From Candidatus Bathyarchaeota archaeon (GTDB taxonomy: Archaea > Thermoproteota > Bathyarchaeia > TCS64), in the NCBI GenBank assembly GCA_963771885.1, contig CAVYVF010000022.1:160001-224000 (forward strand): DNA of 64,000 bases, read 5' to 3'. Every line of letters starts with the position of its first letter. Position 1 is the stretch's first letter. Made by a program: the position numbers and the translations under genes. The notes under the pieces were generated by a model. The model did no database searches. It saw only the letters and a program-made list of their open reading frames with translations, and had not been told where the DNA came from. Positions 20,742 through 37,196 of the stretch are shown here, piece after piece.

Positions 20742-20826
20742 GCAGGGGTTCCCGAGTGGCCAAAGGGGTCAGGCTTAGGACCTGATGGTTAGTCCTCCGT
20801 GGGTTCGAACCCCACCCCCTGCACCA
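20742..20826 (+). tRNA. tRNA-Leu(UAG), intronless, CCA encoded
   Basis: Acceptor GCAGGGG/CCCCTGC; anticodon arm TCAGG-CTTAGGA-CCTGA; long variable arm; GGTTCGAAC; upstream TTTTAAA TATA box. Confidence 0.97.
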
Positions 20827-24958: not shown

Positions 24959-25910
24959 TTAGGGAAGAGGTATTGTCCCCGCGACCCTGAGCCTGCCGCC
25001 GTCGAGGTAGACGAGCACGGCACGAGCCCCCGTAGGGTGAACTAGGGGACGTTCAAGTGTGATCCTTAACTCGGGCTTCCTGTCGCCTGTGTCTGTGATC
25101 TTTGTTACTCTGGCGAGGTTGAGTTGGAGCCAGTGACCTAGGTGGAGCGTGCTGCCCTCGTGGAGTTGCGCTTGGAAGAATGGTATCATATCCGCCTTAG
25201 CCGATATGGTCGTTGTCTGCATTAGTTCCGCTCCGGTGAGAACAGTACCCCTATCGATGTCCTCCGCCTCTACCCCCTTGAGGGCGATGCCGACGTGGTC
25301 TCCAGCCTCCGCGGATTCAAAGTCCTCGTCATGCTTCTGAATATTTCTGACCTCGGCCACCTTATCCCCTGGGAGAACCTTGAGTTGGTCGTGCTTCTTG
25401 ACGGTGCCACTCTTGATGTTTGCGAGGGCGACGGTGCCGATTCCTCGGACGTTGAAGGCAGCGTCGACGGTTAGCGTACCCGGCCTGGGCTGGGGCTGCT
25501 TCGGCGCCTCAGCCAGGGCGATGAGCCTGTCCCTCAGCTTCATCGGGTCGTCCTCCATCACCGTGTAACTCTCAAGAACAGTGCCCTTCCTCAGCGCTTT
25601 GAGTTGGTCCTCGGTGATATAGTTACGGAGCACTATCGTGCCCTCCTTTACGCCACAAGCGTTGATCATGAGGAGGCTCTCGCCGAAGTACTGGTCGAAT
25701 CTTTTCGGCCACGAGGACGGCGTGCTCCCCGAAGGCAGCAGAGTAGTAGAGGCTCTGTATCTTCTCAGGGTACCGGCTCGGCTCGACCATGGTGACGACT
25801 GTCTCACTCTTCTTCAGGTCGTAGAACGTTACGTCTGTCTCGCCGCTCTTCTTCCCGAGCTGCTTGGCGTATCCGGGGCTGCCTATGACTGAGGCGTTGA
25901 GGCTGGGCAC
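24959..25910 (-). CDS. Archaeal SelB-like/EF-Tu-domain protein with degenerate G domain, frameshifted near 25705
   Basis: LGKKSGETDVTFY, YPEKIQSL, VDAAFNVRGIGTVAL, IQKHD, GIALKG. Confidence 0.8.
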
Positions 25911-25988: not shown

Positions 25989-26201
25989 TTGATAGCATTG
26001 GGCAAGATTGATAAGGGCCAGAAATGTACGGTCAGGAACTGCAAGAACGACGCAGTGCGCTCAGTCAACGTTGCCAAGGCGAAGGTCGCCGGCCTCGACG
26101 TCGAGGGTAAGAACGCATACGTCTGCGAGGAGCACTACAAGCAGTTCAAGAAGGGAAACAAGAAGTCAGATCAGATAGAGAAGTGGCGCCACCCGCTCTA
26201 G
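25989..26201 (+). CDS. Small zinc-finger-like hypothetical protein
   Basis: CTVRNC...VCEEHY pattern; basic. Confidence 0.75.
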
Positions 26202-27655
26202 ACGCTGAACTTTGGGCGCTGCTGTAGGTACCGTGGGACCGGCAACGGGCGCCACGGCTTGTCGCCAACGACGCCCTTGATCTCCGCGGCGAGGTCCGCG
26301 GGAGAGTACTCTGAAAGCTTCCCCGTCTCCCTGACGCGTACGGGTATCTTCTCCTTCCCCGCCTCCTTCTCGCCGATGACGAGGGTGTAGGGTATCCATT
26401 CCTTCTCGGAGTCCCTAATCTTCTTCCCCACGGACTCGTCCCTGTTGTCGACGTCGACCCTGATCATTTCAGACTCAATAGAGGCGGCGATCTTGTCGGC
26501 TGCGCCGAGGTAATCCTGGCTGACAGGGATAACTCGGACCTGTGTTGGCTGGAGCCAGAGAGGGAGCATGGGGCGCTTGCCGACCTTCATGTCGAATGCA
26601 GCCTTCTCGAGAAGGGCGTAGATGTCCCTCTCTATGGCGCCGCTGGGGCTGCAGTGGAGGATGTAGGGGTGCTTGGTGGTGCCGTCCTCCTCCATGAACT
26701 TGATATCATAGCGCTCACCGTTCTCCACGTCGATCTGGTCGGTACTCAACGCTGACGCCTTGTCGAGGTTGTCGACGAAGTTCCTCTCCCACTTCAAGAT
26801 GAAATAGAAGATGCGCTCATGCCACATCTCAACGAGGACCGGCTTGCCGTGGGTCTTGACGAGGTTTACGACGAAGTCCTTGTTGTTCTGCCAGAACTCC
26901 TCGGTTAGGCGGACGCCGAGCTCGTAGTCGCTGTTGTGGATGCCTATGCCCTCGAGGACGTTGGCGCTCATGTTGAATCGGACCATGAATTCCTCCTTCG
27001 CCTGCTCGAGATCGCGGCACATTGCGTGCACATCAGGCATGGTGAAGCTGCGTAGCCTACGGAGCCCGGTGAGCTCCCCCTTCTGCTCCCTGCGGAAGCT
27101 GTAGCGAGTCAACTCGTAGATCTTCAGGGGGAGATTCTTGTAGCTGATGGTGGCGTCCTTTGCCATCAGGAACTGGCCGAAGCAAGCGGCGAAGCGGAGG
27201 AAGTACTTGTCGTCGTCCGACTCGATGGTGTACTGGCGGGCGGGGAAGCGGTTGAGGTAGTTCGCGAGGGTCGGGTGGTTAAGGTTATACATGATGGGAG
27301 TCTCGACCTCCATGCCGCCGTACCTGCCGACCTCCCTAGAGACGTACTCCTCGAGCAGCGCCTTAATCATCCTGCCCTTGGGGTAGAAGCGCATGTTCCC
27401 TGGGTCGCTGGCAGGCTCGTAGTCGACGAGCTCAAGCGCCTTCATCATCGTGACGTGTGGGGGCTCCTGCTTGACAGTCCTGTCCTTGTCGACCTCGTAG
27501 CCCGCGAACTTACGCAGGTTGTCGCGGCCCTTAAAGTTGAACTTATCAATTTCATGCAGGTTGCCCTCGGTGTCGAGGATGTACCAGTGTGACTTGAGCT
27601 TCTCCTCCGCCTTAAGGGCGGCTGAGACTACCTCTTCCTTCTTCTTTTCAGCCAT
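26198..27655 (-). CDS. thrS: Threonyl-tRNA synthetase, archaeal type, without the N-terminal editing domain
   Basis: [30 protein letters not shown] and anticodon-binding domain; starts at the linker [16 protein letters not shown]. Confidence 0.95.
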
Positions 27656-27795
27656 TGTTTATGCCTTCCAGTTGGAGGCGGCGACCACTAACCCTTTTTT
27701 AGGTTGCTTCCTTAGAATCTCGGGGGAGCGTCTGGGGTTGCTCAGGGCCTTGCGGCCTAACCTGTTTGGCGGGCGGTCACCGCGCTCTCCTCTGA
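27656..27795 (-). promoter_or_regulatory. Structured 5' leader of thrS (candidate cis-regulatory RNA)
   Basis: GC-rich helices, a GCAA tetraloop and alternative pairings, downstream of a TTAAAAA TATA-like box at 27818-27824. Confidence 0.6.
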
Positions 27796-27820
27796 ACATC
27801 AACGGTGAGGAGGATTGTTT

Positions 27821-28504
27821 TTAACCTTTATGTGCTTTGGGGGCGAGGTGAGCACCTTTCACGGCGTAGGTGCCGCTCGTGCCCTCCCAGACCACCTCGG
27901 CCTCATCGATGACGAGCCTCTCCTTGAACCAAGGAGCGTCGACGACCAGGCTCTCGTACTCACCGCCCTCACCACAGACATTAATGCCATACTTTTCACC
28001 CAGCTTCGCCAACTCCACCGCCGCGGCCTCATCGATCCTCCTGCCGAGCCAGCTCTTGTCTAGCCCGTTGGCGGCTACGTGGACCATGACAATCTCCATC
28101 CCCGACGCTATCTCGTCATCAAGAACCTCCCGCGGGCTCCTCCCCCAGAGCGGTGAGAGGTGGCTTATCCCGAGTTCGTTACAAACCCTATTGACTCTGT
28201 CGCGCTGATAAGTCGAGGCTATTGCGCCGGTAACGACACCCTCCACGTCGAGTAGCTCGATCAGGCTCTTCAACTCGTCGACCTCCTTCTCCTTCTCACC
28301 GCTGCTGGGGGCTGAGGTGAGTGGCTTGCCCAGCGCCTCGGCGATGAGGGGGGTGAGGTGGATGTTAACGCCGTGGAACATGTAGCTGTCCCCACGGGCG
28401 GGGCACATACTTGCGAATATGGAGACCTCGTGCCCCCCCTTCTCCACGAGGTGGGCCGCGTATGTGCTGTCCTTCCCCCCGGAGAACAGAGCAGCCAGCT
28501 TCAT
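27821..28504 (-). CDS. Diphthine-ammonia ligase (Dph6)-family PP-loop ATPase
   Basis: LFSGGKDS, DSYMFH, CGEGGEYES. Confidence 0.92.
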   Translation of the reverse strand: MKLAALFSGGKDSTYAAHLVEKGGHEVSIFASMCPARGDSYMFHGVNIHLTPLIAEALGKPLTSAPSSGEKEKEVDELKSLIELLDVEGVVTGAIASTYQRDRVNRVCNELGISHLSPLWGRSPREVLDDEIASGMEIVMVHVAANGLDKSWLGRRIDEAAAVELAKLGEKYGINVCGEGGEYESLVVDAPWFKERLVIDEAEVVWEGTSGTYAVKGAHLAPKAHKG

Positions 28505-36782: not shown

Positions 36783-37196
36783 ATGAGAGTCCTCCAGTTA
36801 CATTGCAGCAGCTTCGGCTATGAGATAAAGAAGGAGACACCAGTAGCCGAGCAGCCCGCTGACCCCAAGAGCGAGACACTGGAAAACGTACTTGTCTGCC
36901 TCACGTGCTTCGAGAAACAGGACGAGACGCACATGGATGAGATCATGAATGCCTACATGGAGAACATCAAGGTTGACACTGGGCGAATCGGGACAAAACG
37001 CGTGCTCATACACCCCTATGCTCACCTTAGCAAGCAGTTGGGCTCCCCACGCCTCGCCAAGGAGTTCCTCAAGAAACTACAGGAGAAGCTTCTAGCCGAG
37101 GGCTTCGAAGCGCACAGGAGCCCGTTTGGATGGTACAAAAGCTTCACCCTCACAAATATTGGCCACCCCCTCGCCGAATCCTACCGCGAGTACTAG
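36783..37196 (+). CDS. Free-standing archaeal ThrRS editing domain (DTD-like fold)
   Basis: MRVLQLHC, PYAHLS, SPFGWYKSF, GHPLAE; no anticodon-binding domain. Confidence 0.92.
   Translation: MRVLQLHCSSFGYEIKKETPVAEQPADPKSETLENVLVCLTCFEKQDETHMDEIMNAYMENIKVDTGRIGTKRVLIHPYAHLSKQLGSPRLAKEFLKKLQEKLLAEGFEAHRSPFGWYKSFTLTNIGHPLAESYREY

Follow-up and report, generated by a model that had tools for sequence, protein, structure and literature searches.

A conserved leader of thrS with a threonine-codon upstream frame, a probable frameshift sensor of threonyl-tRNA, and its relatives at ileS and thrB in Bathyarchaeia

How does an archaeon adjust a synthetase gene to the charging of the cognate tRNA? This question is raised by the leader of thrS, the gene for threonyl-tRNA synthetase (ThrRS), on the minus strand of a 64,000-nt stretch (the window; contig CAVYVF010000022.1, positions 160,001 to 224,000) from a Candidatus Bathyarchaeota archaeon. 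To our knowledge, the way in which archaea match synthetase and biosynthesis genes to tRNA charging is largely open, and no T-box or attenuator account for archaea was found in the literature searched. Judged from comparison of related sequences, the leader is probably a programmed frameshift element that senses Thr-tRNA and is coupled to thrS by termination-reinitiation.

All the leader elements listed in a sequence-only reading of the window were found at their minus-strand coordinates (Table 1). The promoter, which resembles a B recognition element (BRE) with a TATA box, overlaps the TAA stop codon of the upstream diphthamide-synthase-family gene. The leader folded better than shuffled sequences (z = -3.37; 1 of 200 shuffles equally good). 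The thrS product lacks the N-terminal editing domain and matches positions 142-612 of the 613 of the PRK03991 profile. Loci of such short thrS genes were gathered in two ways, by ThrRS protein similarity and by pattern search, and L010 (without upstream DNA) and L002 and L075 (duplicates) were left out. Conservation in relatives, which the sequence-only reading had set as a check, was borne out: a common core was present in all 59 short-thrS leaders tried, far beyond chance, at a distance of 46-49 nt from the TATA box in most of them, and the conserved stretch corresponded to the first 50 nt downstream of the likely start site. An exact pattern matched 27 of the 79 genomes of the order versus 1 of 79 with the reversed control. 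A covariance model, which rested mostly on sequence since its outer helix was one column off register (pair counts below refer to the corrected register), matched 27 of the 151 genomes of the class, with 23 of 27 in the family of the present genome; elsewhere it gave one match in each of two sister families and one weak match away from thrS. In the genome collection, 65 matches comprised 52 with thrS downstream, 2 cut-off leader copies, and 11 bacterial ones without the flanks, which were treated as chance. Records with the motif that carry names were nearly all Candidatus Bathyarchaeia. Two records labelled as bacterial bins, L111 and L123, had the leader in front of an archaeal-type thrS (72-73% identity) and are probably mis-binned contigs. 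The core was absent from the two full-length ThrRS loci with >55% identity, and full-length thrS of other orders begins directly after the upstream gene. No other full-leader copy in the genome was significant by blastn, nhmmer or the covariance model, the best weak nhmmer match (contig C7, E=1.6) being the thrB element described below.

The core corresponds to a seven-codon upstream open reading frame (uORF) preceded by a Shine-Dalgarno (SD) sequence. Codon tallies were made on 62 distinct thrS leaders, collected by an anchor expression that fixed codons 1, 5, 6 and 8 and cost no short-thrS leader. Codon 1 was GTG in 59 and ATG in 3, codon 5 was CAA in 60 and CAC in 2, codon 6 was the threonine codon ACA in 61, and codon 8 was a stop in 61 (TAG 59, TGA 1, TAA 1); codons 2, 3 and 7 varied in amino acid. 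The predicted duplex of the uORF SD with the 16S rRNA 3' end had a median of -7.2 kcal/mol, and the 16S end, GGATCACCTCC, is present in the genome, as is the gene for tRNA-Thr(UGU), the sole reader of ACA. In leader L026, the ACA, the uORF stop and the open frame described below were lost jointly. Comparative genomics shows the leader core to be an SD-led uORF, predicted to be translated, with an invariant cognate codon, and the conservation of start, stop and frame implies that a ribosome is needed to read the element.

The sequence-only reading had looked for the sensor elsewhere. AGCAACC, which contains the Thr codon ACC and occurs twice in the leader of the window, was kept in 3 of 62 leaders, as was an AACC-loop-GGTT helix, and a UGGU thought to pair with the tRNA end was found 3' of the uORF in 11 of 62. 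Since ACC, AGCAACC and UGGU are not conserved and the invariant codon is the ACA within the uORF, that assignment was wrong. The broader proposal was upheld: the leader is conserved and acts in cis, and it probably responds to the supply of tRNA-Thr to control the translation of thrS. A final hairpin said to hide the thrS SD is not general either: only 10 of 61 leaders had a thrS start region more closed than that of shuffled versions. The antiterminator bulge of T-box RNAs, UGGNACC, pairs with the tRNA NCCA end. It was present in 3 of 62 leaders, and Rfam searches gave no T-box match at E<=10 on the window region and none at gathering score in six loci, in agreement with the earlier statement that this is not a canonical T-box. 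Nor was the leader a known independent noncoding RNA: no Rfam family came close to its threshold, the genome has its signal recognition particle (SRP) and RNase P RNAs at other places, and no tRNA was found at the leader.

Downstream of ACA, a second frame crosses the leader. For the 61 leaders with an assignable thrS AUG (G038 has none), the -1 frame relative to the uORF was stop-free from ACA to 12 nt before the AUG in 59, against 18 expected from shuffles, while over the same stretch the +1 frame was open in 6 and the 0 frame in 17. Among clusters below 70% identity, which are still kin, it was open in 23 of 24 (6.8 expected). A metagenome search, whose pattern fixed the uORF only and left the -1 frame unconstrained, returned 85 loci. 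Of these, 59 were distinct and had both thrS and an AUG, 2 repeated others, and 24 showed no match to thrS in range (8 cut-off copies, 2 fusions and 14 unrelated, by eye). The -1 frame was open in 54 of these 59 (19.9 expected), including 19 of the 23 below 90% and 9 of the 10 below 80% identity to the first set. The stop of this bridge ORF fell within -10 to +8 of the thrS AUG, distances at which reinitiation works in archaea (PMC10666635), in 53 of 61 leaders, as an ATGA overlap in 13 and at +5 in 30, a placement owed in part to the ATG-AGT-GA start of thrS itself. The thrS leaders thus have the stop overlapping or within ~10 nt of a start that characterizes termination-reinitiation. In Haloferax, reinitiation falls by 40-60% at 13-14 nt and to near zero at 22-23 nt (PMC10666635, in the part drawn on here), and the downstream genes of such pairs have no initiation of their own (PMC6728339, likewise in part).

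No conserved bridge peptide was found among the thrS leaders. The open frame could be suspected of being a decayed leftover of the N-terminal editing domain, which this ThrRS has lost, or an artefact of an assembly that has several split genes; since such splits point to indel errors, only cross-genome evidence was used. The bridge is usually out of the thrS frame (frames 0, 1 and 2 in 37, 19 and 6 leaders), differs in length by numbers not divisible by three, and is found again in dozens of independent assemblies and in front of genes unrelated to thrS, by which this explanation is largely refuted and hardly credible. A further explanation has the bridge ORF started directly, at a leaderless 5' end or a non-standard codon, and coupled constitutively to thrS, the uORF competing with it. 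An in-frame TTG, GTG or ATG does occur 16-22 nt before the uORF in many leaders (ATG at 27799 and TTG at 27802 in the window), and 32 of 62 leaders have a start codon within 30 nt upstream, but no start is conserved: the other 30 lack one in that range, 13 of 62 have an in-frame stop at most 16 nt upstream, and a ribosome stalled on the overlapping uORF would presumably repress upon starvation, the wrong direction for a synthetase, so we regard direct starting as quite improbable. In G038 and the metagenome contigs L277 and L285, thrS itself occupies the -1 frame, and no AUG follows the uORF; the in-frame ATG located 28 nt upstream is within the promoter spacer and for that reason probably not transcribed.

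Related elements were observed at two other genes of the genome. The ileS leader (L297:430-530; G000:C2:329742, plus strand) reads GTG TCC GGT GAC CGC CAA ATC TAG; the sensor position is taken by an Ile codon, and the +1 frame ends as ATGA on ileS. All 30 ileS loci that were examined, out of 60 matches in the order, had the element, as did all of 20 further loci; in 28 distinct leaders the sensor codon was ATT or ATC in 27 and ACC in one, and the +1 frame was open in all 28 (12.9 expected), the -1 frame in 3. The second gene, thrB (homoserine kinase; L350:1400-1530; G000:C7:112180, minus strand), heads a thr cluster with thrC-, aspartokinase- and asd-like genes downstream (by eye) and is preceded by a Thr-codon uORF, to which it is fused in the +1 frame. 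Of 54 thrB loci, two lacked the anchor motif and two were duplicates; the element occurred in 48 of the 50 distinct leaders. The gene lies in the +1 frame, the sensor codon was ACA in 48 of 48, and the P-site codon was AAA in 22, CAA in 20 and GAA in 6. Six thrB genes, from three genera, carry a TAG in the ThrB frame immediately 5' of the site and have no start codon between it and the conserved N-terminal motif, so that a +1 shift at NAA-ACA is needed to make the protein. In leader L360, the uORF start was lost and an ATG gained in the ThrB frame. The comparison shows the cognate codon changing with the gene, ACA at thrS and thrB and ATT/ATC at ileS; at ileS and thrB codon and frame were kept and the hairpins of the thrS leader were not.

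A class-wide pattern for the +1 form matched 54 of 131 genomes versus 4 with the reversed control. Outside the order, 20 of 21 loci led into an ileS-like gene (by eye; the profile check of this assignment covered six loci and G038), fused or coupled, and one into replication factor A. Within the genome, scans gave thrS, ileS and thrB as the only clear cases, and of 19 synthetase leaders read besides thrS only that of ileS had the element. Short ORFs with a cognate codon were also observed in front of cysS (L298, MRLLCTVVQV) and of a trpS-like gene (L299, MVVYQPDWALA). L450, L452 and L453 of genus g8 each have an ACA element joined in the +1 frame to a panB-like gene (PRK00311 family), suggesting that threonine controls the enzyme; the frame of L451 ends after 18 codons. 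The +1 family members are better supported than the -1 form of thrS.

What could direct the shift? An internal SD-like GGUGR was found in all forms; the distance from it to the P-site codon is 4 nt in the +1 forms and 8 nt in the thrS form. In the thrS leaders this motif was GGTGA in 54 of 62 and otherwise GATGG, AGTGA, GGTGG or GGTGT. In bacteria, an internal SD stimulates +1 shifts from 3 nt upstream and -1 shifts from 9-14 nt upstream, according to part of a 2016 review (PMC5009743). By analogy, the internal SD of thrS is proposed to act as a -1 stimulator, and the shift would occur at C-CAA-ACA, the counterpart of the place in thrB where the stop pins the site. In the +1 forms, the P-site tRNA on NAA can re-pair on AAA. 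A hairpin of GGCC, a tetraloop and GGCC, located 5 nt after ACA in the thrS form only, kept at least 3 of its 4 pairs in 56 of 62 leaders, and three pairs had two-sided changes. Stimulators of -1 frameshifting sit at such a position 3' of the site, and we infer that the hairpin is a candidate 3' stimulator. Two other ways of changing frame were rejected: a hop to a matching Gln codon, as some bridges have none (L022), and polymerase slippage, for which the A runs of 3-4 are too short.

Longer-range pairing was also observed. The pyrimidine segment facing the uORF SD region was paired in 77% of cells, with two-sided changes in 6 of 6 pairs (MAFFT alignment). The alternative helix of the uORF start region beat shuffled targets at p<=0.05 in 19 of 58 leaders, with clear covariation in L024, L028 and L029 and weak covariation in genus g8. 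Two registers were both possible for the first hairpin, whose conservation is better explained largely by codons and SD. These helices underlie the proposal of leader-peptide attenuation without frameshifting, by which a stall at ACA blocks the long-range helices and frees the thrS start or prevents premature termination. It accords with a uORF carrying the cognate codon, with the pairing of downstream segments to the SD and start region of the uORF, with U/C-rich tracts 3' of the distal segment in some leaders, and with similar complementary segments in ileS leaders (by eye). A modelled stall, however, lowered the cost of opening the thrS start by >1 kcal/mol in only 6 of 61 leaders and raised it in 23 (equilibrium folding), and the stop-free -1 frame, the in-frame fusions and the thrB genes with a stop before the site are left unexplained; attenuation of this kind is therefore unlikely. 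The long-range helices may instead limit loading or direct initiation and may tune a frameshift switch.

Another possibility considered was an RNA fold to which tRNA-Thr (ACA serving as specifier), ThrRS (as an operator) or threonine (as a riboswitch) would bind. Conserved hairpins with some covariation are in its favour, and a codon that changes with the gene (ACA versus AUY) would also fit a specifier. Besides the lack of an Rfam match and the rarity of UGGNACC, however, no NGU of the Escherichia coli operator type was found in the 7-nt hairpin loop, which varies (UGAACGC, UGAUGUC, UGGACGC), and the tetraloop varies freely. RNAalifold on the leaders gave only 4 consensus pairs and no covariation term, the ileS and thrB elements are without the hairpins, and the conserved start, stop and frame call for a ribosome, so that a binding fold is very improbable. 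The signal appears, from these sequence comparisons, to be passed by a change of reading frame and not by tRNA or ThrRS binding a fold. Among candidates set aside were tRNA 3'-end pairing together with anticodon mimicry, not conserved on alignments (by eye), and resemblance to fluoride, tetrahydrofolate (THF), glycine, SAM-I and pistol RNAs, for which Rfam gave no support.

The frameshift mechanism would operate as follows. A ribosome would load at the SD-led GUG near the 5' end and translate the uORF. With ample Thr-tRNA(UGU), ACA would be read and the ribosome would stop at the UAG ~100 nt 5' of thrS, keeping thrS expression low. When charged tRNA-Thr is short, it would pause with CAA in the P site and ACA in an empty A site, and the internal SD behind and the hairpin ahead would aid a move to the -1 frame. 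The shifted ribosome would cross the stop-free bridge ORF, unwinding the leader, terminate on or next to the thrS AUG and reinitiate there, so that starvation would turn thrS on. The -1 step might be a P-site slip or, more speculatively, a step in which tRNA-Asn reads AAC out of frame; the portions consulted of PMC6920855 and PMC5009743 describe how, in E. coli, tRNA-Ser3 and tRNA-Thr carry out such non-cognate -1 reading.

Several observations weigh against this mechanism. ACA is not the rarest Thr codon (12.2 per 1000 versus 7.6 for ACT, a rough count), and the genomes are related, so that leader counts overstate independence. A bridge that closed early, by more than 12 nt, was found in 2 of 61 leaders and, in the metagenome set, in 5 of 59. 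As thrS has an SD of its own and its start region shows no unusual closure in silico, coupling could contribute little if ribosomes initiate there directly; in the present genus, 11 of 12 leaders have a TTG or GTG in the bridge frame 22 nt 5' of the uORF, which could be a leaderless start; and the GTG of GGTGA in the +1 frame could itself start most +1 copies. As for the site, no stop pins it in thrS, the 8-nt SD distance is just below the bacterial range, CAA re-pairs poorly on CCA (middle mismatch), and C-CAA-ACA is no X-XXY-YYZ heptamer.

The element is not confined to one ThrRS type. In four genomes of the present genus, G001, G004, G010 and G015 (L187-L190, L208), a divergent full-length ThrRS replaces the split form and has a +1 element upstream, whose frame ends as ATGA or GTGA on the start in 3 complete loci. 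In front of L206, a thrS of bacterial type, a Thr-rich uORF shares the R-Q-T, and the -1 frame is likewise open. No such leader was seen at the free-standing editing-domain gene of the window. A different conserved leader was observed at the bacterial-type thrS of L191-L194 (family f4), with a long GGCGTCGG/CCGACGCC helix around GG(G/T/C)TTCGACAC and one frame (GVGGKGFDTS...) open to just past the thrS start, for which no start codon was identified. Taken together, the evidence leans towards a family of modular frameshift attenuators that would be the Bathyarchaeia counterpart of T-boxes and attenuators. Each would use one cognate codon in a tiny uORF, SD spacing to set the direction (4 nt for +1, 8 nt for -1) and either a fused gene or a peptide-free bridge; the family would control thrS, the thr operon, ileS and the panB-like gene, and would have moved before three unrelated ThrRS types.

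Table 1. Features of the thrS leader and related genes in the window
Feature	Position	Strand	Basis or remark
BRE/TATA-like promoter, CATAAAGG-TTAAAAA	27818..27832	-	sequence; fixed spacing to core in relatives; start site inferred
TTAAAAA box	27818-27824	-	sequence
uORF SD, GAGGAG	27787..27792	-	6 nt 5' of GUG
GGAGAGCG / CGCTCCCC	27783-27790 / 27723-27730	-	complementary segments
GCGGTGACCGC / GTGGTCGCCGC	27773-27783 / 27678-27688	-	complementary segments
Internal SD-like GGTGA	27777..27781	-	overlaps uORF start; 8 nt before P-site CAA
uORF1, GTG ACC GCC CGC CAA ACA GGT TAG (M-T-A-R-Q-T-G-stop)	27757..27780	-	7 codons
Proposed shift site, C-CAA-ACA	27763..27769	-	invariant columns; ACA 27765-27763
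Bridge ORF, -1 frame	27659..27766	-	35 codons, then TAA 27661-27659; ends 3 nt 5' of thrS ATG
GGCC-tetraloop-GGCC hairpin	27746..27757	-	tetraloop GCAA here; starts 5 nt after ACA
Pyrimidine segment pairing with uORF SD region 27783-27790	27723..27730	-	MAFFT alignment
Long-range partner of uORF start region 27773-27783	27678..27688	-	alternative helix
Last hairpin	27663-27679	-	present as described
thrS SD, GGAAGG	27664..27669	-	inside bridge ORF end, as at coupled gene pairs
thrS, 485-aa catalytic ThrRS	26198..27655	-	Pfam; ATG 27655-27653
Free-standing archaeal ThrRS editing domain	36783..37196	+	PF08915

Other features of the window include a zinc-ribbon-like small Cys/His-rich gene (25990-26200, plus strand) convergent with thrS, a similar gene lying directly upstream of full-length thrS in other orders (by eye), and a tRNA-Leu(TAG) gene (20742-20826, plus strand). 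A SelB-like gene with an EF-Tu domain (24959-25910, minus strand) is broken across two frames; further split genes of the genome are ileS, a class II LysRS-like gene and gluS.

No description of such archaeal amino-acid sensing was found in the main texts of the literature searched; lists of predicted frameshifts, for example in PMC3711429, may be relevant to this. If the frameshift reading is true, thrB and many ileS genes of the class have mis-called starts. The element is compact and lends itself to tests in model archaea or in a cell-free system, for which codon swap, SD spacing and bridge stop provide built-in controls.

Among known systems, bacterial attenuators (thrL, pheL, pheST) use codon runs and switch between terminator and antiterminator. 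They resemble the present element in that a ribosome on a short leader ORF reads a cognate codon and so senses charged tRNA; here, one codon and a change of frame would suffice. T-box RNAs and the E. coli thrS operator serve the same purpose at thrS and ileS, and in the T-box the cognate codon is likewise the specificity element. In the present leaders, however, this codon lies within a reading frame and not in a stem I loop, there is no T-box bulge, Rfam match or anticodon-like loop, and decoding would be by the ribosome (compare PMC6542539, drawn on in part). The layout of prfB, with a short ORF1, an internal SD just 5' of the site, a slow A-site codon as sensor and a product made only after the shift (PMC5009743, in part), is closely matched by the thrB and fused ileS elements, and a short ORF1 overlapping a second frame without its own start was found in the thrS leaders and in six thrB genes. 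Unlike prfB, the elements have a sense codon for the cognate amino acid in place of a stop and an archaeal host, and thrS would use the -1 frame and a non-coding bridge with reinitiation. As in ermCL, a frameshift in the leader ORF would carry ribosomes through a spacer and activate the downstream gene; the trigger there is an antibiotic (ketolide) and not tRNA supply, and no selected stop-start overlap is described in the part of the review used (PMC5009743). The -1 sites of dnaX and IS911 share an upstream SD and a downstream stem-loop with thrS but have tandem slippery heptamers and fixed ratios, whereas thrS has no such heptamer and a spacing of 8 nt. A programmed -1 shift in an archaeon is known from fucA1, the only one demonstrated as of a 2021 review (PMC8211752, in part), which differs in being a single gene with a slippery heptamer and no known sensor. 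The closest likeness in trigger, a limiting A-site aminoacyl-tRNA, is with hungry-codon and non-cognate shifts (Gallant; Ty1; tRNA-Ser3/tRNA-Thr), for which the 2016 review stated that starvation-specific products have no known example (PMC5009743). In contrast to those shifts, the site described here is conserved and tied to cognate genes, and would, if the reading is true, be a natural case in which hungry-codon frameshifting has been selected to sense an amino acid.
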